The notes under the pieces: generated by a model
What the model was told of the DNA's origin: nothing
The model's database searches: none
Seen by the model: only the letters and a program-made list of their open reading frames with translations
Shown: positions 39,566-56,834 of the stretch, piece by piece
Position numbering within the stretch: the stretch's first letter is position 1
Layout of the letters: every line of letters begins with the position of its first letter
From: Actinomycetota bacterium
GTDB taxonomy: Bacteria; Actinomycetota; UBA4738; JBBDHU01
NCBI GenBank assembly: GCA_040880705.1
Contig: JBBDHU010000001.1
Span: forward strand, 315,573-379,572
Length of the DNA: 64,000 bases
Reading direction: 5' to 3'
Translations under genes and position numbers: made by a program

Positions 39566-40354
39566 TCATCTACCCTCCAGTTCTTGTACTGCCCCTAGAT
39601 CCTTCTCGGATATCCCCGGCCGCTCGGCCTCGGCCCCGGGCGGCAGCTCGACCTGAAGCACGGTCGCGCGCATCACTCGGATCCGCACATCCGTCGCTTG
39701 GTAGTCGAGCATGTGCCCGCCTCTCGTTCGATCCTCCGTGACGAAATGCAGGTGGTATCCGGGAATCTCGATCCCCCGGGCTTCGTCGGGAAACCGATAG
39801 CCGAAGAACGACCCCGTAGCTTGCTCGAACTTGAATTTCCGCTGATTCGCTGCCAGCGCCTCGGCGAACAGGCGGTACTGCTTGCGCTCCGGAACGGCGC
39901 TTCTGGCATCGACCCGCGGGAAGTGGCCGTCGAGCCGGATGCAGAGCGACGCCTCCGGCGAGTCGGCCAGCCGGCCGATCTCCGCCTCGATCTCCGAGCG
40001 GTCGTGGGTTCCCTCGAATATCTCGTCGGCGTCGGGTCGCATGAAAGTGACCATGGCGAACGGCGTCAGCCTCTCGGGGGGAACGGGATGCGAAACCCCG
40101 TCCGCCGTCATCTGGAACACCTCGCCGTCGAGAACCAGCAACTCGCCGTCGAGAGAGTTCAGTGTTCCGATCCCGTGATCCCCGTGAGCGAGCAACTCGC
40201 CGATCGTGACGTCACCGTCGTATCGCCCGGCCATGAGCCCGTCCAGGGTCGCAACCTGCAGGATGTGCCGCTCGCCCGGGCGATCGGGTTGAACCTGGGC
40301 GCGCGGAACCTCGACTATCCGAAGTCCGGGGATTCGGATTTCGTTCTCACTCAC
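39566..40354 (-). CDS. alsD: Alpha-acetolactate decarboxylase
   Basis: Full-length AlsD/BudA architecture with conserved His/Glu metal ligands (GTLNSLDGE, IPGYHLHFVTEDRTRGGHMLD). Confidence 0.85.
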   Translation of the reverse strand: MSENEIRIPGLRIVEVPRAQVQPDRPGERHILQVATLDGLMAGRYDGDVTIGELLAHGDHGIGTLNSLDGELLVLDGEVFQMTADGVSHPVPPERLTPFAMVTFMRPDADEIFEGTHDRSEIEAEIGRLADSPEASLCIRLDGHFPRVDARSAVPERKQYRLFAEALAANQRKFKFEQATGSFFGYRFPDEARGIEIPGYHLHFVTEDRTRGGHMLDYQATDVRIRVMRATVLQVELPPGAEAERPGISEKDLGAVQELEGR

Positions 40355-40392: not shown

Positions 40393-41511
40393 CTAGTCGA
40401 AGAGCTGAATGCTCCCCGCTTTCACGAATCGAACGAACGGCGGGTACTCGGCCTCCCGCTCGTCGGAGAAACTGACCAGTCCGAGGATCGTTTCGTCGGC
40501 GACGAATTCGCGGAGCCCCTGCTCGATGCCGGAGGATCCCTTCCCTCCCAAGACGACGGCCCGGGTCAGGATTTCAACTGCGGCGTATCCCTGCGCCGCG
40601 AAGGTGTCCGGGGCCCTACCGATCGCCTGCTCGTAGCCCTTCACGAACTGCTTGCTGAGTGCGTTGGGGCGTCTGGGGTCCCAGGACGAAGCCACGATTA
40701 GGCCCCCACCCGTTCGGCCGGCCGCCCTCAGGACAGATGGAGTGTTGAAACCGTTTCCCCCGACGACGAGCTGCCGTCGCCGCTGGTCCTTCATCACTCT
40801 CATTAACATCAGCGCGTCGGCCGCGTAGGACGGAATGAAGAACGCCTCCGGGCCCGGTGCGGCCGCGTTCTCGACGGCCTCGGCGTGGTCTCGCCCGTTG
40901 GTCGTGAAATGAGCTTGGCGAATGATCGTGATCCCGTATGCTTTCGCGGATTCACGGAACCATCCGGCTGCGGCACTCGAATATTCCTCGTTCGGATCGA
41001 AGATGATTGCCGCGGTGGTGAGGCCGGTTCTTTCCGCCGCCGACTCTACTCCGGCGTCTATGATCGCCCGCTCACTCAACGACACCCTCCACACCGTGTC
41101 GCCGAACTTGGTTATGTCGAGGGCCGAGTTCGTTGCTGCCAGGACGGGCACTCCCGCCTGCTGCGCTATCTGGTCGGTCTCGGCCGCCACGACCGAGAGC
41201 ATCGGCCCGATTATCACGTTGACCTTCTCCGCTATGAGTTCGCGAAAAGCCTGCTGGGCACCGGCTACGGTCGACTTGTCATCGCGAGAGACCAGTTCCA
41301 CGTGGGTGTCCCCGAGATCTCCGGACTGGTTCAGGCGTTCGACCGCATACCTGACGCCGGCAAGCGCGCTCCTTCCGTAGACGGCCGCGTCGCCGGTCGT
41401 TGACATCACGACGCCCACCTTGAGGTTGTCCGTTGGGGTCGGCGCAGGCTTGCCGCCGCAGGACGCCGCGAGCAGAGCCAAGGCGCATAGAAGGGAGGGC
41501 ACGCGTTTCAT
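40393..41511 (-). CDS. LivJ/Peripla_BP_6-type ABC substrate-binding lipoprotein
   Basis: Signal plus lipobox (ALALLAASCGG). Type-I periplasmic binding fold. Confidence 0.75.
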   Translation of the reverse strand: MKRVPSLLCALALLAASCGGKPAPTPTDNLKVGVVMSTTGDAAVYGRSALAGVRYAVERLNQSGDLGDTHVELVSRDDKSTVAGAQQAFRELIAEKVNVIIGPMLSVVAAETDQIAQQAGVPVLAATNSALDITKFGDTVWRVSLSERAIIDAGVESAAERTGLTTAAIIFDPNEEYSSAAAGWFRESAKAYGITIIRQAHFTTNGRDHAEAVENAAAPGPEAFFIPSYAADALMLMRVMKDQRRRQLVVGGNGFNTPSVLRAAGRTGGGLIVASSWDPRRPNALSKQFVKGYEQAIGRAPDTFAAQGYAAVEILTRAVVLGGKGSSGIEQGLREFVADETILGLVSFSDEREAEYPPFVRFVKAGSIQLFD

Positions 41512-41582
41512 GGGCAGACATCCTAGCCGTGCCTAGCATTCTCCAGCCGTTATCGTCTGCGCTTCCGGCCAAGGGACAAATA

Positions 41583-42755
41583 ATGATGAGAGCAACTCGC
41601 CGTCTGGTTGTCGGGACGGTTGCGGCCGTCCTCGCCGCGGGATGCACGAGCACCGGGAGCACGACCTCCGGCACCACCGGCGGCGGAGGCGGCGACGCGA
41701 TCAAGATCGTTCTGGAGGGCCCGATCACGGGCGATCAAGGTGCAACCGGAACCGACATGCTGTATGCGGCTCAGCTCGCCGTCGAGCAGGCCAATGCGGA
41801 TGGAGGCGTGCTGGACCAGCAGGTCGAACTGATCGAGGCCGACGATCAGGCGCTAACCGGCAAAGGAGTCCAGCTGGCGAAAGAGCTTGCCACCGACGAT
41901 GTGTTCGCCGTAGTCGGCCCGTACAACTCCTCTGTGGGGGTCAAGAATCTGCCAATCTGGATCGACGGGGGAGTGATCCCCATCCACCTCACGAGCAACG
42001 CCGACACGGACGGGATGGGCTACACCGTCCAACCGAAGGACTATCAGGTGGCTCCCGTCGAGGTCCCCGCGCTGTCGGACTGGCTCGAGGCGGGGAGCGT
42101 CGCGATCGTGTACGACACCTCCACATACACGGCGGACATCGCGAAGCAGGTCAAAGACGATCTGGAGAAGGCGGGCGTGGAGGTTCCCCTCTTCGAAGGA
42201 TTCAAGACCGACAGGCTCGACGCAGGCAAGGTAGTGGATGCGATCGCCGCAACCGACGCGGATTACTTCTACTCCAGCACCTACTTTCCCGAGGGCGGCC
42301 AGATTGCGAAGGCGGCGCACCGAGTACTCGATCAAGACTGTTTCATGGGGCTCGCGAACCAGGATGCGGGTTTCGTCAAAGAGGCCGGCTCGGCGGCGGC
42401 CCAGGAGTGCTACGTAAGCGGCGTCCCTTCGGCCGAGCAGTTTCCGGAGGCCAAGCAGTACGTCGCCGACTACAGGGAGGAGTTCGGACGGGATCCGGGG
42501 ACTTGGGGCACCTTTACCTACGATTCGGTGAACCTTCTCTTCGATGCGGTCCGGCGCGCCGGCGCGTGGGATAAGCAGAAGTTGATGGACGAGCTCTCCG
42601 CCACGAAGGGCTACGAGGGCCTGACGGGGCCGATCACCATCGACCCGAAGACGGGGAATCGGGTGGTCCTTCCGATAGTCATTCTGAAGGTCGACGCCAA
42701 GGGGGACTTCGTCGTCGATCGAAGCTGGGCGAAGTTCGCCGGGTTCGAAATCTAG
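41583..42755 (+). CDS. LivJ/Peripla_BP_6-type ABC substrate-binding lipoprotein, second divergent copy
   Basis: MMRATRRLVVGTVAAVLAAGCTS signal plus lipobox. Type-I PBP fold. Divergently transcribed from the previous SBP. Confidence 0.7.
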   Translation: MMRATRRLVVGTVAAVLAAGCTSTGSTTSGTTGGGGGDAIKIVLEGPITGDQGATGTDMLYAAQLAVEQANADGGVLDQQVELIEADDQALTGKGVQLAKELATDDVFAVVGPYNSSVGVKNLPIWIDGGVIPIHLTSNADTDGMGYTVQPKDYQVAPVEVPALSDWLEAGSVAIVYDTSTYTADIAKQVKDDLEKAGVEVPLFEGFKTDRLDAGKVVDAIAATDADYFYSSTYFPEGGQIAKAAHRVLDQDCFMGLANQDAGFVKEAGSAAAQECYVSGVPSAEQFPEAKQYVADYREEFGRDPGTWGTFTYDSVNLLFDAVRRAGAWDKQKLMDELSATKGYEGLTGPITIDPKTGNRVVLPIVILKVDAKGDFVVDRSWAKFAGFEI

Positions 42756-42897: not shown

Positions 42898-43659
42898 ATG
42901 GAGAGGCTCGCGTCCGACGTAGGTGCGCCGGTCGAGAACGGACACGGAAAAATGCCGAAGGAGATAGCGGAGCGGCTCGAGGAGCAGCTCGAGTACTACC
43001 GCACGCGGGCACCCGAGTACGACCTGTGGGCGGAGCGCCAAGGTCCCTGGGCGCGCGATCCCGGGATCAGGAAGCAGTGGTTCGACGAGATAACGCTGCT
43101 GGAGGCTGCCCTCGACGTATTCGAGCCACGGGGCCGCATCCTCGAGATCGCATGCGGGACGGGGGCCTGGACCGAGCGGCTGGCCCGCCACACGAACGAA
43201 CTGACCGCCATGGACGCGGCGCCCGAAGTCCTCGACATCAACAGGGCCCGCCCGCACGGAGAAAACGTGGAATTCATCCACGCCGACATCTTCAGCTGGA
43301 CTCCTACCGAAAAGTTCGACGTGATCTTCTTCTCGTTCTGGCTCTCGCACGTGCCCCCGGCTTTGTTCGATCGCTTCTGGGAGGTCGTCGGACAGGCCCT
43401 CGTTCCCGGCGGCCGCGTGTTCGTGATCGACAACGTGCCAAGCGAGGACGCCGACAAGGTGGACCCGGAACTTCCAGGGCCGGACGCGAACTCGGTCGTT
43501 CGAAAGGTGACGGCCGGGGATGCGTTCAGGGTATTCAAGGTGCTCTACACCCCCGACGAGCTCGAGGAGCGCGTAGAGCCGCCGGGCTGGGATCTGCACG
43601 CCAAGTCGACCGGCTCGTTTTTCCTCTACGCGTCAGGGCAGCAGAACATCCCCGACTAG
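42898..43659 (+). CDS. Class I SAM-dependent methyltransferase
   Basis: ILEIACGTGAWT motif I. DVIFFSFWLSHV. GGAGAGG before the ATG. Confidence 0.75.
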   Translation: MERLASDVGAPVENGHGKMPKEIAERLEEQLEYYRTRAPEYDLWAERQGPWARDPGIRKQWFDEITLLEAALDVFEPRGRILEIACGTGAWTERLARHTNELTAMDAAPEVLDINRARPHGENVEFIHADIFSWTPTEKFDVIFFSFWLSHVPPALFDRFWEVVGQALVPGGRVFVIDNVPSEDADKVDPELPGPDANSVVRKVTAGDAFRVFKVLYTPDELEERVEPPGWDLHAKSTGSFFLYASGQQNIPD

Positions 43660-43837: not shown

Positions 43838-44110
43838 GCGCCCACCCTAGTTCTACCCAACGACAGGTACGCCCGGCGCTGTTTTCGCAGCTCGACGAAG
43901 CCGCCGAGAGCGTTTGATATCCTGGACTCGGCATCAAGAGCACCCGGGAAAAGGCCGGGTGCGGCAACCTGGGACGGACACCCAAGGTGCCCTCCCGCGA
44001 CGGCGGGGATGCGGTCGCCGAAACGGCGGCAAGGAAGTGTCCTGAAGGCGAGGCCCGTTCTCCAAGGAGAGCGGGCTCATCGCATTACGGAACCGGCGCG
44101 GGTTGGTGGT

Positions 44111-45361
44111 CTAGCGGCGCCGTGGCCGTCCGGTCGGACGGCGCCTCCCCTTCTTGCTCGAGAAGACGACCCGCGGGGGCTCGATCTTCATTCCGGCCTC
44201 GACGAACTCGGCCTGCAACTTTAGACGCTTCGCGATCCGGCTGACGTCGGCCCGCTGCATCGGAGTGACGAAGGTGATCCCCGTTCCGGCGCGTCCGGCG
44301 CGGGCTGTTCGCCCGACCCTGTGCACGTAGCCCTTCTCGTCCTCCGGGGGATCGAAGTTAACGACGTGGGTGATGTGCTCCAGGTCGAGCCCGCGGGCGG
44401 CTACGTCCGTGGCGACCAACACGTCGTTCTTGCCGGCCGCGAAACGCCCCAGTGCCCGCTCCCTCGACGGCTGCGTCATATCGCCGTGCAATTCCTGCGC
44501 GTGGAATCCCTCCCGCCTGAGCGTTCTCGCAAGCTTGTCGGCTCCGCGTTTGGTGCGAACGAAGATCAGGGTCAAGCCGCGATCGGCCGCCAGCTCTCTT
44601 ACAAGAGCTGAGACTTTTCCCTCCGGTTCGACCGCGACGAAACGGTGGGCGGCCTCGGGGACGAGTTGAGCCTCGTCCACCACCTCGTGGCGGATGGGAT
44701 CCCTCGTGTAACGCGAAGCCAGCCTGCCGACCTCGCCGCTAAGCGTGGCGGAGAAGAGCATGGTCTGGCGATCGGACCCTAGAAAGGACAGGATCATGCT
44801 CACGTCGGGCAGGAACCCCATGTCGAGCATCCGGTCCGCCTCGTCGAGAACGCAGATGCGAACCGCGTGCAGCTTCAGGAGCTTTCTCCTGACCAGGTCG
44901 AGGAGTCTGCCGGGGGTGGCGATCACGATGTCCGCGCGTCTCGCTCGCTTTCCCTGGTCGGTCAGGCCGACACCGCCGTAGACGGCGGAGACCGAAAGGT
45001 GCTTCACGTCGGCGATCGCTCGGAAGTCCTCCGCCACCTGGCTCGCGAGTTCCCTGGTCGGGACGAGGATGAGTGCGGCCGGCGGGCCCTGGTCGTGAGC
45101 GATTCGCTCGACGATGGGGACGGCGAAAGCCAGGGTCTTTCCCGAACCCGTCCGCGATCGTGCCAGGACGTCGCGTCCGGCGATCGCGTCCTTGAGGACC
45201 AGCGACTGGATGGCGAAGGTGCCGTTGATGTTGCTGAGCGCCAGAGCCTCGACCACCTCGCCGGAGACGCCGAACTCGGCAAACCCCTGCGGCGTGGCCG
45301 GGACCTCCACGGGGGTCTCGACCACGGCTTCGACTTTTTCCTGCCCGGGCTCGGTACTCAT
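44111..45361 (-). CDS. DEAD-box ATP-dependent RNA helicase
   Basis: Q-motif, TGSGKT, PTRELA, DEAD, SAT, HRVGRTARAG motifs all present. Arg-rich C-tail. Confidence 0.85.
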   Translation of the reverse strand: MSTEPGQEKVEAVVETPVEVPATPQGFAEFGVSGEVVEALALSNINGTFAIQSLVLKDAIAGRDVLARSRTGSGKTLAFAVPIVERIAHDQGPPAALILVPTRELASQVAEDFRAIADVKHLSVSAVYGGVGLTDQGKRARRADIVIATPGRLLDLVRRKLLKLHAVRICVLDEADRMLDMGFLPDVSMILSFLGSDRQTMLFSATLSGEVGRLASRYTRDPIRHEVVDEAQLVPEAAHRFVAVEPEGKVSALVRELAADRGLTLIFVRTKRGADKLARTLRREGFHAQELHGDMTQPSRERALGRFAAGKNDVLVATDVAARGLDLEHITHVVNFDPPEDEKGYVHRVGRTARAGRAGTGITFVTPMQRADVSRIAKRLKLQAEFVEAGMKIEPPRVVFSSKKGRRRPTGRPRRR

Positions 45362-47189: not shown

Positions 47190-47615
47190 ATGAACCCAAC
47201 CACTCATTTGCGTGCGTGCATGCGTGCCGTTCTGGCCGCCTTCCTCGTGCTGGCCGTGCTCGCCGGAACCTTCGGCGGAGTGACTCCGGCGTCTGCATCC
47301 TCGGCGTCGAAGATGCTTCATCTGACCAACGGCGCGCGAAAAGACCGAGGGTTAAAGCCGCTCAACAGGAGCCGGAAGCTCTCCCGCCTGGCGCGGGAGA
47401 ACGCGCGGAGCAACTCGGAGAGTGAGACGCTCGTCCACAGCGGTTCGGGAAAAGCTGAGAACGCGGGGTACGGCCCGTCGGTACGCGCGGTGTACAAGGC
47501 GTTCATGAACAGCGGTGTTCACAGAAAGAACATCCTCAACGGCTCGTTCCGTCGCGCGGGGGTCGGCGTGATCTCAGAGGACGGTTACAAGTGGGTGACT
47601 CTGATCTTCGCCTGA
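47190..47615 (+). CDS. Secreted CAP/SCP/PR1-like domain protein
   Basis: Signal peptide. HLTNGARKDRGLKPL...HSGSG...NILNGSFRRAGVGV resembles PF00188. Confidence 0.65.
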   Translation: MNPTTHLRACMRAVLAAFLVLAVLAGTFGGVTPASASSASKMLHLTNGARKDRGLKPLNRSRKLSRLARENARSNSESETLVHSGSGKAENAGYGPSVRAVYKAFMNSGVHRKNILNGSFRRAGVGVISEDGYKWVTLIFA

Positions 47616-47655: not shown

Positions 47656-49989
47656 ATGCCAGAGTTCACCGACGAGTTCACAGCTGCCGCTCCGAACCTT
47701 TCGCCGGACGAGGCTCGAGAGGTCGCCGAGCGTTACTTCGGCGTTAGCGGGCCGGCCCAAGCGCTCGACAGCGAACGCGATCAGAACTTCCGCATAACGA
47801 ACGAAAACGGCGAGTCGTTCGTCCTGAAGATTGCCAATCCGGCTGAGGACCCGGCGGTGGCCGAGATGCAGGTCGATGCCCTCCGGCATGTCGAGGGAAC
47901 CGATCCCGGTCTTCCGGTTCCGCGTGTGGTACCAACGACAGAGGGTGTGCCGATAGCCGTCGTGGAAACTCCTACGGGAGAGAAGTGCACGGCGCGAATG
48001 GTGACCTTCCTCGAAGGAGTCAACAATGACGAACCCGCCCTCGACCTTGCCGCCATCCGGGATATCGGAGTCCTCGGTGCGCGGCTGTCGCGTGCCCTGC
48101 GCGGGTTCTTTCATCCCGCGGCCGGCCGGCCCCTGGTGTGGGACATTCGCCGCGCCGGAGAGCTGGCGCCGAAGCTCGAAGAGATCGCGGATTCGAGGTG
48201 GCGGGAGCTCGTCGCCGGCGAATTGGATCGATTCGAGGAGGTCCGCCCTTCGATAGGTGGGTTGCGCGCGCAAGTAGTTCACAACGATCTTTACGCCGAC
48301 AACGTGCTGGTCGATGCCGACGACGAGCGCCGGGTCACCGGGATCATCGACTTCGGGGATCTGCTGCACGCGCCTCTCGTGTGCGATCTGGCCGTAACCG
48401 TGTCGGCCATGATGTGGGCCCGGCCCGATCCGTTCGCCGCTGCCGAAGCTGCGATCGGCGGCTTTGTCTCGCTCACTCCCTTGGAGCCCGACGAGGTCGA
48501 GCTGCTGCCCGACCTCATGGCGGCCAGGCTGGCCGCAACCGTGCTGATCGGTGCGTGGAGATCAAAGCTGCATCCCGAGAACGTCGACTACATCTCGGTC
48601 GGGGACGCGCGTGCCGCCGATCTCCTCACGCTGTTCGAGGAGATCGGCAGGCCCGAGCTTCGTCGGCGGATCGCGGAGATGGCCACGCGCCCCCCCGCGA
48701 AGCCTGCCGTCGTGCCCGACGAGGAACTGATCGAGCGCCGCAGGCGAGTACTCGGCCCGATGCTTCCGCTCTCGTACGACGAGCCGGTCCATCCGGTACG
48801 CGGCGAGGGGGTTTGGATCTACGACGCCTCGGGCCGTGCTTTCCTCGACGCGTACAACAACGTGCCGCAGGTCGGGCACGCGCATCCGCGCGTAGTCGAG
48901 GCTCTGACGAATCAGGCCCGCCTTATCAACACGAACACCCGTTATCTGCACGAGTCGATCGTCGAGCTGTCGGAGCGGCTCATAGCCACGATGCCCGAAG
49001 GGCTGGACACCTGCCTTTATTTGAATTCGGGAAGTGAGGCGAACGACATCGCGTGGCGGATGTCGGTGGACTTCACAGGAAACGAGGGTGCGATCGTGAC
49101 GGAGTTCGCGTATCACGGCGTGACGGTCGCCTCTGCGGGGCTTTCCCCGGAGGAGTGGCCTGAGGGAAAACCGGTGAACGTCTCAACGGTTCCTCCTCCG
49201 GACGGTTTCCGCGGAGAGCACAGATCGGGTGAATCCGGCTGGGCCGGGCGGTTCGCCGAGTATCTCGACGATGCGGTCGCGTCGTTGCACTCGGCACGAA
49301 TCGAGCCGGCCATGTGCCTGATGGACTCGTCGTTCGCGAGCGACGGGATCTTCTTCCCGCCCGGCGAATATCTCCAAGGCGTCGTTCAAAAGACCCACGA
49401 GGCGGGGGGGCTGTTCGTTGCGGACGAGGTGCAGGCGGGCTTCGGACGCACCGGCGAGATGTGGAGCTTCGCCGCATCGGGAATTTCGCCCGATTTCGTT
49501 GCGCTGGGCAAGCCCATGGGCGACGGTCATCCCGTCGCCGCTATCGTGACGCGGCGACAGATCGCGGAACGCTTCTCAGAGTCCTATCCGGAGTTCTTCA
49601 GCACCTTCGGCGGGAACACCGTTTCCTGCGCCGTCGCCCTGGCCGTCCTGGACGTACTGGAAGAAGAAGGCCTCATGGCGAACGCCGCAGAGGTCGGGTC
49701 CTATCTGATGGACGGACTCGAGGGCCTCAGTCACGGGCTGATCGGAGACATCCGGGGTTCGGGACTGATGATCGGGGTAGAACTCGTGCGAGATGCGGAC
49801 ACGCGTGAAGCGGCAACCGAGGAGACCGATGCCGTCGTGAACGCGATGCGAGCGAGGGGTGTCCTCATCGGAAGCACCGGCCCGGCGGGCAATGTACTCA
49901 AGATCCGTCCGCCGCTCCCGTTCTCACGCGCGAACTCCGACCAGCTGCTCGAGACTCTCGATTCGGTTCTCCAGACGGCCGCCGGCTGA
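47656..49989 (+). CDS. Fusion protein: N-terminal APH/hydroxylysine-kinase-like phosphotransferase domain plus C-terminal class-III aminotransferase-fold (phospho-lyase-like) domain
   Basis: N-half has the kinase catalytic motif VVHNDLYADNVLVD and IIDFGD. C-half has class-III aminotransferase signatures (GRAFLDAYNNVPQVGHAHP, ADEVQAGFGRTGEMW, LGKPMGDGHPVAA). 777 aa, single uninterrupted frame. Confidence 0.8.
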   Translation: MPEFTDEFTAAAPNLSPDEAREVAERYFGVSGPAQALDSERDQNFRITNENGESFVLKIANPAEDPAVAEMQVDALRHVEGTDPGLPVPRVVPTTEGVPIAVVETPTGEKCTARMVTFLEGVNNDEPALDLAAIRDIGVLGARLSRALRGFFHPAAGRPLVWDIRRAGELAPKLEEIADSRWRELVAGELDRFEEVRPSIGGLRAQVVHNDLYADNVLVDADDERRVTGIIDFGDLLHAPLVCDLAVTVSAMMWARPDPFAAAEAAIGGFVSLTPLEPDEVELLPDLMAARLAATVLIGAWRSKLHPENVDYISVGDARAADLLTLFEEIGRPELRRRIAEMATRPPAKPAVVPDEELIERRRRVLGPMLPLSYDEPVHPVRGEGVWIYDASGRAFLDAYNNVPQVGHAHPRVVEALTNQARLINTNTRYLHESIVELSERLIATMPEGLDTCLYLNSGSEANDIAWRMSVDFTGNEGAIVTEFAYHGVTVASAGLSPEEWPEGKPVNVSTVPPPDGFRGEHRSGESGWAGRFAEYLDDAVASLHSARIEPAMCLMDSSFASDGIFFPPGEYLQGVVQKTHEAGGLFVADEVQAGFGRTGEMWSFAASGISPDFVALGKPMGDGHPVAAIVTRRQIAERFSESYPEFFSTFGGNTVSCAVALAVLDVLEEEGLMANAAEVGSYLMDGLEGLSHGLIGDIRGSGLMIGVELVRDADTREAATEETDAVVNAMRARGVLIGSTGPAGNVLKIRPPLPFSRANSDQLLETLDSVLQTAAG

Positions 49990-49990
49990 G

Positions 49991-51181
49991 GTGAGGCGGT
50001 CCGCCGCCATTGCCGCGGCGCTGGTGATCCTCGCCCTTCAAGCATGCACCAGTGCTGTCGAGCCGTCCGGGACGGGTGAGCCGACGGTTCCCGTGGAACC
50101 GGAGCGAACCACGACTGAGGTCACAACGGGCCTGTCGCTCACGGAGATCACCGATCCTGCAGGCCCCTACAAGATCTTCGTATTGACTATGACTCCCTCA
50201 TCGGTGCTGACGCTCGACGTGGGGCTTCCCCGCAAGTCGCTCGGTGGACAAGGTCCGCTTACTCGGATCGCCGCCCGGCACGACGCGATCGCGGCGGTGA
50301 ACGGGGACTACGGGACGTCTTCCGGTCGCCCGCTTCATCTGTTCGCCATGGACGGCGAGCTGTACCAAACGACGCTGATCAACCGCTCCGGGAGGAACTT
50401 CGCCATGTCCTCGGACGAGCGCCGCGCGTATTTCGGCAAGCCCGATGCGTCGATCGTGATCGAACGCCCCTTGGCCGGGCGGACGATCGATGTTCAGCGC
50501 TGGAACGATGGGGCGCCCGCGCCGGCGCAGGTCGCCGGCTACACGGACCGGGCGGCGGGTCTCGAACACCCGCCGGAGAACGCATGCTCGGCGCGACTGA
50601 TGCCTGACGGTGGGCCGGACTGGGAATCCGGTGAACAAGGGGTGCGCCGTGCATTCACCGTGGTGAAGGTCCGCTGTGGGGAAGACCCGGTGGATGTTGA
50701 ACCCGACACGGTCGTTGTTTCGGCGTCGATCAATGGGAGGCGAGCCGCCGAGGTCGGGGATCTTCGGATGGGGGAGCGCGTCGTTTTGACCTGGTCGATC
50801 GGCTGGCCGGGGGTGCTCGATGCCATCGGCGGCAGCGCGCTGTTGATCGAGGACGGCGAGATCGTCGCCGAGAAATGCCACGGCCACTACGAGTGCTGGC
50901 GGCATCCCCGGACGGGGGTCGGTATCACCGCCGACGATCGGATCCTTTTGGTCGTGGTCGACGGCCGCCAGGAGGACTACTCGATCGGGATGCGGCGGGA
51001 GGAATTCGCCGAGCTTATGCAGGAACTGGGCGCGGTTGATGCGCTCGCTCTCGACGGCGGCGGATCGAGCACGATGGTTATCGAGGACGGGCTCGTGAAC
51101 CATCCCCCGGATGGAGAGGAACGCCCGATCATGTCCGCACTGATGATCCTGGCCGGCCCCGATCCGGACGAGAAGCTCTAG
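49991..51181 (+). CDS. Phosphodiester glycosidase-family (NAGPA/DUF2233) lipoprotein
   Basis: GTG start right after the previous stop. Lipobox LALQAC. AAVNGDY and ALDGGGSSTM motifs. Confidence 0.6.
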   Translation: MRRSAAIAAALVILALQACTSAVEPSGTGEPTVPVEPERTTTEVTTGLSLTEITDPAGPYKIFVLTMTPSSVLTLDVGLPRKSLGGQGPLTRIAARHDAIAAVNGDYGTSSGRPLHLFAMDGELYQTTLINRSGRNFAMSSDERRAYFGKPDASIVIERPLAGRTIDVQRWNDGAPAPAQVAGYTDRAAGLEHPPENACSARLMPDGGPDWESGEQGVRRAFTVVKVRCGEDPVDVEPDTVVVSASINGRRAAEVGDLRMGERVVLTWSIGWPGVLDAIGGSALLIEDGEIVAEKCHGHYECWRHPRTGVGITADDRILLVVVDGRQEDYSIGMRREEFAELMQELGAVDALALDGGGSSTMVIEDGLVNHPPDGEERPIMSALMILAGPDPDEKL

Positions 51182-51737: not shown

Positions 51738-52835
51738 TTGCCTCTGGAAAGGCCGCTATCATTGGCGATGATGGATCGAAAGGCCTTGCGATTCGGCATT
51801 TTGTTCGGCTCGCTCTTCGTCGCGATCACTCTGACCTCAACTCTGTTTCCCCAGGCGGGCGCGCAGGAGGGCGAAGGCACGCGGATCGCGGCCGTGGGGG
51901 ACCTCGTCTGCGCCTTCGGTGCCCGCACGGAACGCCACGTCGCGGGCGCGGCGAAGGTCCACGGCAAGTGCGAACCCGGGAGGGTCGCGCGTTTGGTGAC
52001 GGAAGGTGGATACGACGCCTTCCTGCCGCTCGGCGACCTTCAGTACTCGTACGGCGGCTACTGGCGTTATGTCACTTACTGGGACAAGTTCTACGGTTCG
52101 GTGAAGGACATCACCCGGCCGGCGGCCGGAAACCACGAGGCCTACAACGATTTCTCCGGCTACGTCCGCTACTTAGGTTCGAAGCGAACGCACTTCCCCG
52201 ACAACTACGAGACATACCGGCCGGGCGACGAGCCCAGGCGCGTCACCGGCTACTACTCCTACAACATGGGAGGGTGGCACCTCATCTCGATCAACTCCCA
52301 GCTTTGCATCAACAAGATGTGGAATCTCAAGACCCGCTGGACGACGCCGATCCCCGGCGGCGGATGCGAGCCGGGTGACCCTCAATACGAGTGGCTGAAG
52401 CGCGACCTATCGCGGCATTCGAACGACGAATATCCGTGCACGATCGCGTACTTCCATCACCCGATGTTCAAGGTGACTAAGTACAAGCTCCCCGGGAACA
52501 ACGTCCAAGGCCCGCTCTACGAGTTACTTCACGGGGCGAATGCCGACGTCTTGCTCACCGGCCACCAGCACAACTACCAGCGTTGGGGCCCGATCGATCC
52601 CGAGGGGAATGCCGATCCGAACGGCATGATGCAGTTCATCGTGGGAACGGGCGGCGACTCGTACCAGCCCCTGCCGGACGAGAGCGAGTGGCCCGAGGAA
52701 GTGGCCACAGCCAACACGCAGACCTACGGCATCCTCGAGATGACTCTTCGTGAAGGGGCCTACGACTTCGAGTTCATCGCGGCCCCCGGCCAGCCGGTCG
52801 ACTTCGAGGACTCTGGCAGCGCGGACTGTCACTAG
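51738..52835 (+). CDS. Calcineurin-like metallophosphoesterase (purple-acid-phosphatase-like), secreted
   Basis: GDLQYSYGG, GNHE, FHHPMF, GHQHNYQRW metal-ligand motifs. The more likely start is the internal MMDRKAL about 30 nt downstream. Coordinates follow the ORF-track frame; my manual count disagreed by 1 nt. Confidence 0.7.
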   Translation: MPLERPLSLAMMDRKALRFGILFGSLFVAITLTSTLFPQAGAQEGEGTRIAAVGDLVCAFGARTERHVAGAAKVHGKCEPGRVARLVTEGGYDAFLPLGDLQYSYGGYWRYVTYWDKFYGSVKDITRPAAGNHEAYNDFSGYVRYLGSKRTHFPDNYETYRPGDEPRRVTGYYSYNMGGWHLISINSQLCINKMWNLKTRWTTPIPGGGCEPGDPQYEWLKRDLSRHSNDEYPCTIAYFHHPMFKVTKYKLPGNNVQGPLYELLHGANADVLLTGHQHNYQRWGPIDPEGNADPNGMMQFIVGTGGDSYQPLPDESEWPEEVATANTQTYGILEMTLREGAYDFEFIAAPGQPVDFEDSGSADCH

Positions 52836-52851
52836 GGTCGGAAGCGAACCA

Positions 52852-54456
52852 ATGGCGGCGAATCAATACGACGCGGTAGTCATCGGCGGAGGCCATAACG
52901 GCCTGGTTGCGGCCGCGTACCTCGCCAAGTTCGGCAAAAGGGTCGTCGTGCTGGAAGCCCGGCACAAGACAGGGGGCGCGACGGACACGTCGCAACCCTG
53001 GCCGGAGGCTCCGGAGTTCAAGGTGACGACCCTTTCGTACACGATCAGCCTTATGCCTCCCTACATCATCAACGACCTGAGGCTCCCCGAGTTCGGCTAC
53101 AAGGTGCTGCCGCTGTCGATGGGCTATCTCCCGCTTCCCGGCGGAGGTTCGATAAAGGAGGGTGGGGACGAGCGCCAAGTATGGGAGACCTACGCCAAGT
53201 TCTCGAAGGCGGACGCCGACAACCTCGGCCCGTATTTCGAGTGGATCGACCGAATCGGCAAGATGCTCAAGCCCCTCCTCGACCGGACGCCGCCCCATGT
53301 CGGTTCGAAACGCTTGAAGGACGTGCGCGATCAAGCGCAACTACTGTGGATGCTCCGAAAAGACGTCGACGAAAGCACCGCCGCCGACATCACGCGACTC
53401 TTCACGATGAGCGTGTCCGATCTCCTGGACCGCTGGTTCGAGAACGACACGATCAAGGGTTTCATGGCGGTGAACGGGATCATCGGAACTTGGGCCGGGC
53501 CGATGGAGCCGGGCACGGCGTATGTCCTGATGCACCATTCGATCGGCGAGGAAACCGAGGGGCAGGTGGCATCTTGGGGCCAGCCCGAGGGCGGAATGGG
53601 CGCGATTGCCGACGCCATGCGCCGTTCGGCGGAGGCGAGCGGGGCCGAGGTCCGCGTCAACTCGCCCGTCGAGAAGGTCTTGATTCAAAACGGGAGGGCG
53701 ACCGGCGTCGTGATCAAGGGGGGCGAGGAAGTGTCGGCGAAGGTTGTAATCACCGCCTGCCACCCGCAGATCACCTTCCTCGATCAGATCGATCGGGCCG
53801 ACCTGCCGGCGGAGTTCGTCAACGACATCGAGCACTGGCGGACCCGTTCGGGAACCGTGAAGATCAACCTGGCGCTCGCCGAGCTGCCCGAGTTCACGGC
53901 CGACCCGGGATTCGATCCGGACGTGCACGGATCGGCGATACAGATCCTCGACGACATGGAGTATCTCGAGCGCGCTTTCCAGGAGGCGCGAAGCGGCAAG
54001 GGAGCTGAGCTGCCGTTCTCGGACTGCGAGATCCCGTCGGTCTGGGACAAGACGCTCGCCCCCGAGGGCAAGCACGTCATGTCCTTGTTCTCCCAATGGG
54101 TTCCGAAGGAATGGGCCGACGAGGATCACACCGAGGATCTCGAGAGGTACGCGGACCGGCTGATCGACCGGTTCAACGCGGTCGCGCCCAACTTCAAGGG
54201 TTCGATCCTTCACCGGCAGATCATCGGTCCGAGGGAGATGCAGGAGGAATACAACCTGATCGGCGGCAACATCTTCCACGGTGAGCTGGCGGTCGATCAA
54301 CTGTTCCACATGCGCCCGGCGCCGAAATTCGGCGACTACCGAACGCCGATCAAGGGCCTGTATCAGGCATCGAGCGGAACGCACGCGGGGGGCGGCGTAA
54401 GCGGCCTGCCGGGGCACCACGCGGTGCGTGAGATTCGAAAAGACCGAGCACTCTAA
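52852..54456 (+). CDS. CrtI/COG1233-family FAD-dependent oxidoreductase, paralog 5
   Basis: MAANQYDAVVIGGGHNGLVAAAYLAKFGKRVVVLEARHKTGGATDT. TLSYTISLMPP, FSKAD. C-terminal LYQASSGTHAGGGV. Confidence 0.8.
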   Translation: MAANQYDAVVIGGGHNGLVAAAYLAKFGKRVVVLEARHKTGGATDTSQPWPEAPEFKVTTLSYTISLMPPYIINDLRLPEFGYKVLPLSMGYLPLPGGGSIKEGGDERQVWETYAKFSKADADNLGPYFEWIDRIGKMLKPLLDRTPPHVGSKRLKDVRDQAQLLWMLRKDVDESTAADITRLFTMSVSDLLDRWFENDTIKGFMAVNGIIGTWAGPMEPGTAYVLMHHSIGEETEGQVASWGQPEGGMGAIADAMRRSAEASGAEVRVNSPVEKVLIQNGRATGVVIKGGEEVSAKVVITACHPQITFLDQIDRADLPAEFVNDIEHWRTRSGTVKINLALAELPEFTADPGFDPDVHGSAIQILDDMEYLERAFQEARSGKGAELPFSDCEIPSVWDKTLAPEGKHVMSLFSQWVPKEWADEDHTEDLERYADRLIDRFNAVAPNFKGSILHRQIIGPREMQEEYNLIGGNIFHGELAVDQLFHMRPAPKFGDYRTPIKGLYQASSGTHAGGGVSGLPGHHAVREIRKDRAL

Positions 54457-54466
54457 GGAGGACGAA

Positions 54467-55648
54467 TTGTCAGCACAGGAAGACGTCTGGCCGAGCACCG
54501 ACCTCTACTTCGGGCCGTGGTACCGGCGTTCGCCATATTTCGAGGCGACACTGCGCGCCGGAGCCAAGGCCTACGACATCTACAACCACATGCTCTTGCC
54601 CGGCTACTACGACGACCCGAACGTCGAGTACGAAGCGATGATCAACGACGTCGTCGTCTGGGATGTCGCGGTTGAGCAGACCGTGGAAATCGCCGGCCCC
54701 GACGCCGATCGTTTGATCGACAGGATCACCTGCCGCGATTTGACGAAGTGCGCGGTCAAGCAGGGCAAGTACATGCTCGTTACCGCGCCGGACGGCGGCA
54801 TCGTCAACGACCCCGTTCTTCTGCATGTCGGCGAGAACCGCTGGTGGATGCAGCTCGCGGATTCCGACGCCGGACTGTACGCGCTCGGCGTCGGACAGGC
54901 AGGGGGATACGATGCGCAGGTCTCGTTTCCTCACGCGTACCCGATGCAGGTGCAAGGTGCGAAGTCCGCGAAGACGCTCGAGAAGCTGGTCGGGCCAGCC
55001 ATCTACGACCTCAAGTACTACTGGTGCGACTTCTTCGAGATCGAAGGCATTCCCGTTCTCATAAGCCGGACCGGCTACACGGCCCTGCCGGGCTTCGAAG
55101 TGAACATCCTCGAAATGGAACGCGGAACTCAGCTCTGGGACGCGGTGTTCGCGGCCGGGGAGGAGTTCAACATCCGCGCCGCCGCGCCGAACATGGCCAG
55201 GCGCATCGAGGCCGGGATCATGAACTACGGCTCCGACATGGACATCGAGAACAATCCCTTCGAGATCATGGGCTTCGAGCGTCTCGTCGAGGAACAGAGT
55301 CAGGACTACATCGGCAAGGAGGCTCTCGAACGGATTCGCCGCGAGGGTGTTAGCCGCAGGCTGGTCGGAATCGGGATCGACGGCGACGAGATCGAGGCGG
55401 ATCCCGAGGACTTCTGGCCGGTTCGCTCCGGAGGAAAGGAAGTCGGCAAGGTGACGGACGCCGTCTGGTCCCCGCGCCTGAAGAAGAACATCGGTTACGT
55501 ATGGGTGCCCGTTGAATTGTCCGAGCCGGGAAACAGGCTGGAGATCGAGTCAGAGAACGGTTCGCTCACGGGGACGACGGCGGCGATCCCGTTCGTCGAC
55601 CCGAAGAAGGAAGTCCCGGCCGGCTCGCTCGCTTCGCAGAAAACCTGA
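54467..55648 (+). CDS. GcvT-family aminomethyltransferase-like protein, copy 2
   Basis: TTG start 6 nt after AAGGAGG. LYFGPWYRRSPYFEAT... GCV_T fold (ISRTGYTALPGFE). 393 aa. Confidence 0.75.
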   Translation: MSAQEDVWPSTDLYFGPWYRRSPYFEATLRAGAKAYDIYNHMLLPGYYDDPNVEYEAMINDVVVWDVAVEQTVEIAGPDADRLIDRITCRDLTKCAVKQGKYMLVTAPDGGIVNDPVLLHVGENRWWMQLADSDAGLYALGVGQAGGYDAQVSFPHAYPMQVQGAKSAKTLEKLVGPAIYDLKYYWCDFFEIEGIPVLISRTGYTALPGFEVNILEMERGTQLWDAVFAAGEEFNIRAAAPNMARRIEAGIMNYGSDMDIENNPFEIMGFERLVEEQSQDYIGKEALERIRREGVSRRLVGIGIDGDEIEADPEDFWPVRSGGKEVGKVTDAVWSPRLKKNIGYVWVPVELSEPGNRLEIESENGSLTGTTAAIPFVDPKKEVPAGSLASQKT

Positions 55649-55658
55649 GGAGGTTTTG

Positions 55659-56834
55659 TTGACAGAAATAGGAGGACCCGCGAAGGCGCCGCCTGCGGCC
55701 GGCCGCACGAGGCTGTACTTCGGTCCGTGGTATCAGAAGTCGCCCTTCTTCGAGGCGACGAGGCGCGCCGGATGCTCCGCTTACGACATCTACAACCACA
55801 TGTATCACCCGAACTCTTACGGCGATCCCGAGGAGGAGTACCAGGCCCTGATCAACGACGTGACGCTCTGGGACGTGGCGGTCGAGCGAATCGTCGAGAT
55901 CTCCGGACCGGACGCGACGGAGCTCACCAACATGCTGACCTGTCGCGACCTCACCAAGTGCGATGTCAAACAGTGCAAGTACATGCTTGTGACTGCGCCC
56001 GACGGCGGGATCGTCAACGATCCGGTCTTGCTTCGGATCGAAGAGAACAAGTGGTGGATGGCGCTGTCGGATTCCGACGCAGGTCTCTATGCGCTCGGCG
56101 TGGCGGCCGAATCGGGTCTGAACGCCGAGGTCACACACCCCGAGGTCTATCCGGTTCAGGTCCAGGGGCCGAAATCGAAGGAAACGATGCGCGACCTGTT
56201 CGGAGACTGGGTCCTCGACATGAAGTACTACTGGTGCGAGGAGACGGACCTCGATGGCATACCGGTCGTGATCAGCCGTACCGGCTGGACGGCAGTCGTC
56301 GGTTACGAGATCTACCTGAGGGACCCGTCTAGAGGCGACGACCTCTGGGAGAAGATCCTCGAGGCCGGGAAGCCACACAATATACGAGTTACGCCGTCAT
56401 CCGACATCCGCCGCATCGAGGCGGGTATTTACGACTACGGATCCGATTTGTCGATCGACACAAACCCCTTCGAGGCGATGGGACTGGAACGCTTGGTCGA
56501 AGAGCAGGAGGCCGACTACATCGGCAAGGACGCCCTGGAAAGGATTCGCCGGGAGGGCGTGACGCGCAAGATAGTCGGGATCGAGATCGAGGGCGACCCG
56601 CAGGGGCAGCCGCCCGACCACCTGCCGGCGTTCAGCGGCGGCGAACGGGTCGGCTACGTGACCGACATCGCCTACTCGCCCCGGCTCGAGAAGAACATCG
56701 GGTACGTCTGGGTTCCGATCGATCTGGCCGAACCGGGCAACGAGCTCGCGGTTGAATCACCGCAAGGAACGCTCAAGGGCAAGACCGCCTCCGTTCCGTT
56801 CATCGACCCGAAGAAGAAGGTTCCGGCCCAGTAG
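55659..56834 (+). CDS. GcvT-family aminomethyltransferase-like protein, copy 3 (tandem paralog of copy 2)
   Basis: TTG start 5 nt after GAGGAGG. LYFGPWYQKSPFFEAT... Colinear with copy 2 throughout. Confidence 0.75.
   Translation: MTEIGGPAKAPPAAGRTRLYFGPWYQKSPFFEATRRAGCSAYDIYNHMYHPNSYGDPEEEYQALINDVTLWDVAVERIVEISGPDATELTNMLTCRDLTKCDVKQCKYMLVTAPDGGIVNDPVLLRIEENKWWMALSDSDAGLYALGVAAESGLNAEVTHPEVYPVQVQGPKSKETMRDLFGDWVLDMKYYWCEETDLDGIPVVISRTGWTAVVGYEIYLRDPSRGDDLWEKILEAGKPHNIRVTPSSDIRRIEAGIYDYGSDLSIDTNPFEAMGLERLVEEQEADYIGKDALERIRREGVTRKIVGIEIEGDPQGQPPDHLPAFSGGERVGYVTDIAYSPRLEKNIGYVWVPIDLAEPGNELAVESPQGTLKGKTASVPFIDPKKKVPAQ

Follow-up and report, generated by a model that had tools for sequence, protein, structure and literature searches.

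A bacterial fusion of a hydroxylysine-kinase-like domain and a class-III PLP domain of the phospho-lyase clade, probably a two-step amino-alcohol catabolic enzyme

The stretch of DNA analysed here (the window, 64,000 nucleotides of contig JBBDHU010000001.1 from an Actinomycetota bacterium) contains a gene whose single product joins a kinase of the aminoglycoside phosphotransferase (APH) fold to a class-III enzyme domain dependent on pyridoxal 5'-phosphate (PLP). This gene probably encodes a cytoplasmic two-step catabolic enzyme, in which an amino-alcohol kinase is followed by a PLP phospho-lyase. The N-terminal domain would use a nucleoside triphosphate to phosphorylate the hydroxyl of an amino alcohol next to the carbon that carries the primary amine. 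The PLP of the C-terminal domain (C-domain) would then form an aldimine with the amine of the phosphorylated product and eliminate phosphate in a 1,2-elimination, releasing ammonia and a carbonyl compound; with a terminal amine, as in phosphoethanolamine and 5-phosphohydroxylysine, the carbonyl product would be an aldehyde. We infer both the sequential order of kinase and lyase and the general type of substrate. This mechanism is supported by the domain architecture, the family membership of both domains, the intact catalytic residues, and the loss of residues typical of transaminases. The human enzymes HYKK, PHYKPL, and ETNPPL carry out kinase or phospho-lyase chemistry of the proposed kind.

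The translated open reading frame (ORF) runs uninterrupted for 777 codons from an ATG start, a choice backed by an 88% identical homologue with a like-starting N-terminus, to a TGA stop at 49987–49989. The first-pass annotation, made from the sequence without database searches, had described a single frame with an APH-fold kinase and a class-III PLP domain, and both Pfam models score above their cut-offs: PF01636 (APH) on residues 39–266 (E 1.5e-30, 107.2 bits versus a cut-off of 23.2) and PF00202 (Aminotran_3) on residues 378–772 (E 7.2e-72, 242.7 bits versus 30.5). The top NCBIfam match is PRK06148, with 775.5 bits, below the cut-off of 1128, followed by PRK06149 with 591 versus 973. The N-domain aligns to positions 5–329 of the PRK06148 profile and the C-domain to positions 584–1011, leaving the roughly 250 positions of 330–583 unmatched. 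Because neither a signal peptide nor a membrane segment was found at the N-terminus, the protein should be cytoplasmic.

Two separate genes could in principle have been joined artefactually by a frameshift in sequencing or assembly, as the first-pass annotation had considered for the junction, and we regard this as extremely improbable. Nothing was found in its favour, and the continuity of the frame in homologues and in genome loci of several phyla refutes it. Two assemblies contain an identical 777-residue protein, and one of these is an NCBI Actinomycetota bacterium metagenome-assembled genome with a 604-kb contig; the 88% identical relative is likewise continuous across the junction. Both domains occur in 120 of the 120 best homologues (726–847 residues), with a query coverage of 95–100% in nearly all of them. 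A scan of one genome per species gave 597 relatives, of which the best 80 match across residues ~1–777 in one frame. These 80 loci span Actinomycetota, Chloroflexota, Alpha- and Gammaproteobacteria, Acidobacteriota, and Desulfobacterales, and their cultured carriers include Kribbella spp., Mesorhizobium huakuii, and Mycoplana.

The kinase domain belongs to the HYKK (hydroxylysine kinase) family: it shares 29% identity with HYKK, the fusion N-domains and HYKK orthologues align strongly as profiles, and both have the same top NCBIfam match. A BLASTP comparison with the Papio hydroxylysine kinase gives this 29% identity over 328 residues (E 1e-41), and hhalign of a profile of 15 fusion N-domains against 12 HYKK orthologues gives a probability of 100 and an E of 1.5e-45 over 327 columns. 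HYKK itself has its top NCBIfam match to the N-terminal region of PRK06148 (2.7e-56, compared with 2.2e-12 for the homoserine kinase model), and this region is also where the fusion kinase domain scores best. Thus, the label "hydroxylysine-kinase-like" given in the first-pass annotation is correct at the family level. The AlphaFold2 (AF2) model of residues 1–345 has a predicted local distance difference test score (pLDDT) of 91.6 and a predicted template modelling score (pTM) of 0.89. The solved folds nearest to it are homoserine kinase 2PPQ, the amicoumacin kinase AmiN, 6EF6 (a "microcompartment-associated aminopropanol kinase", 20% identical), and N-acetylhexosamine kinase, all of which are small-molecule hydroxyl kinases with no more than 22% identity to the fusion kinase domain. 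HYKK is therefore closer in sequence than any other characterised APH-fold kinase that we compared.

The catalytic residues of this domain align with those of HYKK. The two motifs quoted in the first-pass annotation are present, the catalytic loop HNDLYADNVLVD at residues 209–220 and the metal-binding IIDFGD at residues 230–235, and K58, which by the pattern of the APH and protein-kinase folds is assigned as the nucleotide-binding lysine, lies in the VLKI motif. The 30 family members compared all keep K58, H209, D211, N216, D232, and D235. For these comparisons, a human HYKK sequence served only as bait; it matched a 100% identical database entry in the cluster containing HYKK_HUMAN, and the same search gave more than 100 orthologues named hydroxylysine kinase. 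The sequences of PHYKPL, GabT, OAT, ArgD, and the Chromobacterium omega-transaminase (Cv-TA) were likewise verified against the database, so that the evidence consists of database sequences only, and a sequence of dialkylglycine decarboxylase that proved inexact was discarded.

The PLP domain is placed, by both sequence scores and predicted structure, inside the phospho-lyase clade formed by ETNPPL, PHYKPL, and A1RDF1, and not with transaminases, racemases, or decarboxylases. The top sequence match in the PDB is 6TOR, human ETNPPL, the phospho-lyase acting on O-phosphoethanolamine (E 4e-108, 366 bits), and the second is 5G4I, the Arthrobacter phospholyase A1RDF1 (E 7e-97, 329 bits). The next tier, comprising isoleucine 2-epimerase, dialkylglycine decarboxylase, racemases, and transaminases, begins only at 5e-53 with at most 184 bits, and it is this gap of 366 versus 184 bits that argues for the placement. 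Human PHYKPL, compared as the exact database sequence, is 40% identical to the C-domain (E 5e-112). A single MAFFT alignment gives the C-domain identities of 43.5% with ETNPPL, 39.2% with PHYKPL, and 39.8% with A1RDF1, and of 26–30% with GabT, OAT, ArgD, and Cv-TA. A Foldseek search with the full-length model also ranks 5G4I and 6TOR first, with a target TM of 0.92–0.93, a root-mean-square deviation (rmsd) of 1.9–2.5 Å, and E values of 1e-39 to 1e-36; all other matches are at 1e-29 or weaker.

The core of the PLP site is intact, in that G459-S460, D590, Q593, K619, and T650 align with GabT G111-S112, D239, Q242, K268, and T297, and none of the six varies among the 30 family members. It is around this core that the domain departs from transaminases. 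The position of GabT R141, OAT R180, and ArgD R144 is V489 here and H, H, and N in the three lyases; that of GabT E211, OAT E235, and ArgD E198 is S562 here and C, V, and T in the lyases; and that of GabT R398, OAT R413, and ArgD R377 is K749 here, and the three lyases and all 30 fusions compared also have K. S562 is present in 29 of 30 family members, and an extra basic residue, R751, lies two positions past K749. From the residue roles in GabT and OAT, we take V489, K749, and S562 to stand at the positions of the distal-carboxylate arginine, the alpha-carboxylate arginine, and its "switch" glutamate, respectively. The GabT and OAT numbering derived from the alignment agrees with that of the literature, and PDB entry 1SZK is titled "GabT mutant E211S".

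On the question of lyase or TRANSAMINASE, the alignment indicates that the acid-substrate residues of true class-III transaminases are replaced, as in the known lyases. The proposal that all residues of a true transaminase are retained, which the first-pass annotation had named as grounds for abandoning its view, thus fails at V489, S562, and K749. Further features point the same way. N402 and R429 are common to the fusion C-domain and all three lyases, a two-residue deletion in the YNNVPxVGH loop is visible throughout the lyase clade, including the fusion C-domain, and a PxPDxYRGxxR insertion is common to the clade except A1RDF1. We infer that the second reaction would be a lyase elimination without transamination. 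It is instead conceivable that the C-domain is a genuine aminotransferase (or a racemase) acting on a phosphorylated or an unrelated amine, so that the fusion to a kinase would not imply elimination. This would accord with a PLP core that is the same as in transaminases, with the aminotransferase label that Pfam and NCBIfam give to the domain, and with racemases and a decarboxylase in the second tier of PDB matches, but the replacement of the acid-binding residues by K749, S562, and V489 follows the pattern of three lyases that lack transaminase activity, and the scores of 366 versus 184 bits put the domain in the lyase clade, so that we consider it improbable.

Several points weigh against a kinase and phospho-lyase acting together as proposed. 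The protein is moderately similar to the characterised enzymes (29% identity in the kinase and 39–44% in the lyase), and because of this both the substrate and even the reaction specificity could differ from theirs. Enzymes of other kinds, namely racemases, a decarboxylase, and the ammonia-lyase PbfA, belong to the same PLP superfamily. In the full-length AF2 model both domains are confident, but with a pTM of 0.56 they have no confident arrangement relative to each other, and residues 348–351, a disordered linker, are the sole internal segment with a pLDDT below 50. Because of this pTM and this linker we claim no channelling geometry, and channelling between the kinase and PLP sites is not supported by the model. 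Finally, among the loci compared, the fusion shows no consistent linkage to an aldehyde dehydrogenase, a transporter, or a regulator.

Kinase and lyase are coupled throughout the family, in fused, adjacent-gene, and three-part versions, so that the fusion is one form among several. Searched exhaustively with just the kinase domain (clusters at 50% identity, E ≤ 1e-30), the family comprises 1,264 clusters. Among the best 150 of these, about 110 are stand-alone kinases (~330–420 residues), 27 are two-part proteins (~680–870 residues), and four are three-part proteins (~1000 residues). In the three-part relatives P0334 and P0362, a Peptidase_M23 domain lies between the kinase and the lyase and corresponds to positions 330–583 of PRK06148, the segment that the fusion protein of the window lacks. 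In both proteins, this peptidoglycan-hydrolase-type domain sits inside a presumably cytoplasmic catabolic enzyme. In the split pairs, a stand-alone kinase gene is followed by a lyase gene with a 4-nt overlap (L089), or the two genes are 12 nt apart (L090–L092). The kinases of these pairs are 43–49% identical to that of the window, and the lyase of L091 shares 47% identity with the window C-domain.

These architectures fit the reported discovery of the animal enzymes. Bacterial "bi- or tri-functional" proteins made of an APH kinase and an AGXT2L homologue reportedly guided Veiga-da-Cunha et al. (2012), who are said to have identified AGPHD1 as hydroxylysine kinase and AGXT2L1/2 as ammoniophospholyases. 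The first-pass annotation was thus right that bacterial fusions had been noted before; the fusion architecture is common and already recognised, and the protein is an ordinary member of a large family. The 2012 study is cited as an example of discovery by gene fusion in a passage of PMC12138971 and as an example of comparative genomics in a passage of PMC5714238.

The substrate cannot be assigned, and possible candidates are 5-hydroxylysine, ethanolamine, 1-aminopropan-2-ol, or an amino alcohol beyond the substrates known so far. The function put forward in the first-pass annotation stands as far as the kinase and phospho-lyase pair is concerned, supported by homology and by the grouping with the lyase clade in sequence and predicted structure, but nothing here supports its ethanolamine/choline-derived substrates. 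One candidate function is that of a counterpart of HYKK plus PHYKPL, converting 5-hydroxy-L-lysine via 5-phosphohydroxylysine to 2-aminoadipate semialdehyde, ammonia, and phosphate, and so feeding lysine catabolism. HYKK, which acts on hydroxylysine, is the sole characterised enzyme of the kinase family, and 1.2 kb downstream of the fusion the window encodes an AsnC/Lrp regulator. The split pair of L090–L092 (2109–11086) is flanked by two sets of genes for polar-amino-acid ATP-binding cassette (ABC) transporters of the SBP_bac_3 type and by GntR/FCD and AsnC-type regulators; among the loci examined, these flanking genes are the clearest hint of an amino-acid-like substrate. Against the hydroxylysine function, the C-domain is slightly nearer to ETNPPL (43.5%) than to PHYKPL (39.2%), and of the sites that differ between the human paralogues, 36 agree with ETNPPL and 23 with PHYKPL, a weak signal given that the paralogues are 67% identical. 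There is also no linked lysine-catabolic gene and no amino-acid transporter adjoining the fusion in the window, and we consider this function rather unlikely.

The other candidate is a kinase for ethanolamine (or 1-aminopropan-2-ol) joined to an O-phospho-amino-alcohol phospho-lyase that would form acetaldehyde (or propionaldehyde). We regard this as a tentative possibility, and as tentatively it can be likened to the classical amino-alcohol route of Erwinia and Pseudomonas and to the mycobacterial RMM microcompartment pair. Both solved relatives of the lyase domain (6TOR and 5G4I) act on phosphoethanolamine, the KPMG motif after the catalytic lysine is that of ETNPPL and A1RDF1 and not of PHYKPL, which has KSIG, and the solved folds closest to the kinase domain include the aminopropanol kinase 6EF6. 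In other lineages, a short-chain dehydrogenase/reductase (SDR) and a GntR regulator recur beside fusions, and the RMM1 locus has both (PMC4207490). However, 6EF6 is far below HYKK in identity to the fusion kinase. An SDR beside some fusions was considered as an aminopropanol dehydrogenase and rejected, as it is a generic FabG-like protein whose top 60 PDB hits include no aminopropanol dehydrogenase. Moreover, the 16 neighbouring ORFs scanned at 39.5–58 kb of the window (some small ORFs lie outside the scan) include no RMM-type or other microcompartment shell protein, no aldehyde dehydrogenase, no SDR aminopropanol dehydrogenase, and no GntR.

Table 1. Positions of the fusion gene, its domains and catalytic motifs, and its two adjoining genes in the window.
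Feature	Position	Strand	Basis
Fusion gene, 777-residue bifunctional protein	47656..49989	+	ORF call and two Pfam domains; stop codon included
N-terminal HYKK-like small-molecule kinase domain, APH fold, residues 1–345	47656..48690	+	PF01636, AF2 model, and comparison with HYKK
Codon of K58, presumed nucleotide-binding lysine of the VLKI motif	47827..47829	+	Matches the VLKI lysine of HYKK in the alignment
Kinase catalytic loop HNDLYADNVLVD, residues 209–220 (H209, D211, N216)	48280..48315	+	Aligned with HGDLNDHNIL of HYKK
Metal-binding IIDFGD, residues 230–235 (D232, D235)	48343..48360	+	Aligned with ILDF(G/D)D of HYKK
Short inter-domain linker, residues ~346–356	48691..48723	+	Low pLDDT
C-terminal class-III (fold-type I) PLP domain, residues ~357–777	48724..49986	+	PF00202 and PDB matches
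Codon of K619, predicted Schiff-base lysine (LGKPMG)	49510..49512	+	Aligned with GabT K268, OAT K292, and PHYKPL K278
Codon of K749, replacing the transaminase arginine (GabT R398/OAT R413)	49900..49902	+	AAG ATC CGT CCG CCG = K-I-R-P-P
Secreted CAP/YkwD-family protein gene	47190..47615	+	PF00188 and signal peptide; 40 nt upstream of the fusion gene
NAGPA-family (PF09992) lipoprotein gene	49991..51181	+	GTG start most likely at 49991, 1 nt after the fusion stop

The fusion gene is preceded in the window by genes for a DEAD-box helicase (on the minus strand), a GAF-PAS histidine kinase, and a secreted CAP/YkwD protein, and is followed by genes for a NAGPA lipoprotein, the AsnC/Lrp regulator (on the minus strand), a metallophosphoesterase, a CrtO-like flavin adenine dinucleotide (FAD) oxidoreductase, and two GcvT-family proteins. 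The CAP and NAGPA neighbours are as the first-pass annotation described them, the former with a signal peptide and the latter with the lipoprotein signal VRRSAAIAAALVILALQA|C, ending in LALQA|C. The fusion and NAGPA genes are likely co-transcribed, because the latter starts 1 nt past the fusion stop. The whole gene order, including NAGPA, is kept in the 88% identical relative (L085), while a 63% identical relative (L086) keeps CAP and the metallophosphoesterase and is missing NAGPA and AsnC. At 60% identity or less, the gene order of the window is gone.

We compared 84 loci for conserved neighbours and searched 86 fusion loci by tblastn without ORF calling. No universal partner family was found among the fusion loci. 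An SDR occurs in 14 of them, immediately upstream in six, and in Alphaproteobacteria a Pot-type ABC transporter occurs in nine and an agmatinase-like ureohydrolase in 11. PotB/PotC-type permeases follow the fusion directly (L042, L052, L054, and L073, ~50–950 nt downstream; L063 and L080); a PotD-type binding protein and the agmatinase-like ureohydrolase lie nearby in these alphaproteobacterial loci. This suggests that an imported amine or guanidino compound may be the substrate in that lineage.

The NAGPA gene occurs in only one of the 86 fusion loci (L085) and CAP in three (L085, L086, and L050). Starting from NAGPA, a metagenome scan with the single sequence gave no match, and an alignment-based scan gave relatives. 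CAP is absent from all 80 NAGPA loci, and the kinase is present in three of 77 NAGPA-relative loci: L093, which is on the same contig as L087, and L131 and L133, in which the fusion is divergently oriented from NAGPA. In L087 (150–2553), a stand-alone kinase 47% identical to that of the window, with no lyase adjoining, is followed by a NAGPA lipoprotein that is 56% identical. The adjacency of kinase and NAGPA thus recurs in three arrangements, as fusion and NAGPA, as stand-alone kinase and NAGPA, and as a fusion divergent from NAGPA.

This recurrence, together with the 1-nt gap and its conservation in L085, would be expected if the kinase-lyase and NAGPA (and perhaps CAP) salvaged an amino-alcohol head group set free outside the cell from a phosphodiester-linked glycan or envelope polymer. 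The reverse counts speak against such a joint function, as NAGPA is missing from the other 85 fusion loci and from the 63% identical relative, the kinase is found in so few NAGPA loci, and L135 and L136 keep NAGPA without the fusion; we judge it very unlikely. We give just as little credence to the broader proposal that the family acts on an amino alcohol outside the three known phospho-lyase substrates, here with the translationally coupled NAGPA lipoprotein, salvaging a head group from an envelope or extracellular phosphodiester-linked glycan. Because the fusion is missing in L135 and L136 while NAGPA, the metallophosphoesterase, and the histidine kinase are retained there, the adjacency of NAGPA (and CAP) looks like synteny inherited within one Actinomycetota lineage, and NAGPA is probably not functionally tied to the fusion.

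Two other candidate partners were rejected. A pair comprising an Orn/DAP/Arg decarboxylase and a protein of the metallo-beta-lactamase fold occurs within 8 kb of the fusion in two loci only (L002, 1024–3178, and L004, 11595–13648, both on the minus strand). A link to choline or methylamine through GcvT, FAD-oxidase, and MttB neighbours is confined to three or four loci of related genomes. In the window, this region (52750–56834, plus strand) consists of the CrtO-like, amine-oxidase-type FAD oxidoreductase and, after it, two tandem paralogues of the GcvT family (aminomethyltransferase-like) with overlapping maximal ORFs (54428–55648 and 55512–56834), and it may be a methylated-amine catabolic region. 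L002 has a similar FAD oxidoreductase/GcvT-like block close to its fusion, and there the gene directly upstream of the fusion encodes an MttB-family methyltransferase.

Further upstream in the window, a SAM-I/IV riboswitch (RF01725) lies at 43926–44046 on the plus strand (49.1 bits versus a gathering score of 41.1), just downstream of a gene for an S-adenosylmethionine (SAM)-dependent methyltransferase (42898–43659, plus strand), with no convincing same-strand ORF downstream of it. The DEAD-box helicase gene (44111–45361, minus strand) is convergent and ends 65 nt past the riboswitch, so that transcripts reading through would run antisense to the 3' end of the helicase gene. An alpha-acetolactate decarboxylase gene is found at 39566–40354 (minus strand), followed by divergent genes for Peripla_BP_6 solute-binding proteins at 40393–41511 (minus strand) and 41433–42755 (plus strand). 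Because the maximal ORFs of these two genes overlap by ~80 nt, at least one start is probably further in than the maximal ORF.

The value of these observations is mainly for annotation. Databases label the protein "aminotransferase class III-fold enzyme" or "Ser/Thr protein kinase RdoA"; the evidence, which is that of homology, says that these labels are probably mis-annotations of a kinase plus phospho-lyase that is not a transaminase. We know of no bacterial member of this kinase/phospho-lyase family with an assigned substrate, and identifying one would close a gap in how bacteria break down amines or amino acids, a modest and tractable question.

Among known systems, the kinase domain most resembles HYKK/AGPHD1 of animals, with which it shares the S-x-x-DQNF, VLKI-x-N, HxDLxxxN, DFGD, and YPENxxY motifs, whereas HYKK is a stand-alone protein of ~373 residues. 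HYKK acts on 5-hydroxy-L-lysine and prefers GTP, properties that are not transferable at 29% identity. ETNPPL/AGXT2L1 (6TOR) and PHYKPL/AGXT2L2 belong to the same clade as the window C-domain and share its PLP core, the replacement of the Arg/Glu/Arg residues, and the PxPDxYRGxxR insertion, and the model superposes on 6TOR with a target TM of 0.93 and an rmsd of 1.9 Å. They differ in being stand-alone and in having H, C or V, and K where the window protein has V489, S562, and R751. A1RDF1 of Arthrobacter aurescens TC1 (5G4I/5G4J), a bacterial member of the lyase clade and the best Foldseek hit (E 4.5e-39, target TM 0.92), shares the equivalents of K749 and R751 (NVLKMRPPL) and the KPMG motif, but it is stand-alone and lacks the R519 and R523 that the window protein has in its PDxYRGxxR insertion. 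A1RDF1 was reportedly found to be active on phosphoethanolamine by Cuetos et al. (2016).

The RMM pair, in which the (S)-1-amino-2-propanol kinase 6EF6 occurs with a class-III "aminotransferase", follows the same logic of an APH-fold kinase coupled to a class-III PLP enzyme (PMC4207490), although its members are unfused, its kinase is only distantly similar, and no microcompartment genes are among the ORFs scanned near the window gene. The three-part PRK06148/PRK06149 proteins (APH, Peptidase_M23, and class-III PLP domains, ~1000 residues) have homologous end domains and differ from the window protein by the M23 domain between them. The split kinase and lyase pairs of L089 and L090–L092 consist of the same two proteins as two polypeptides, set among other flanking genes (amino-acid ABC transporters and GntR).

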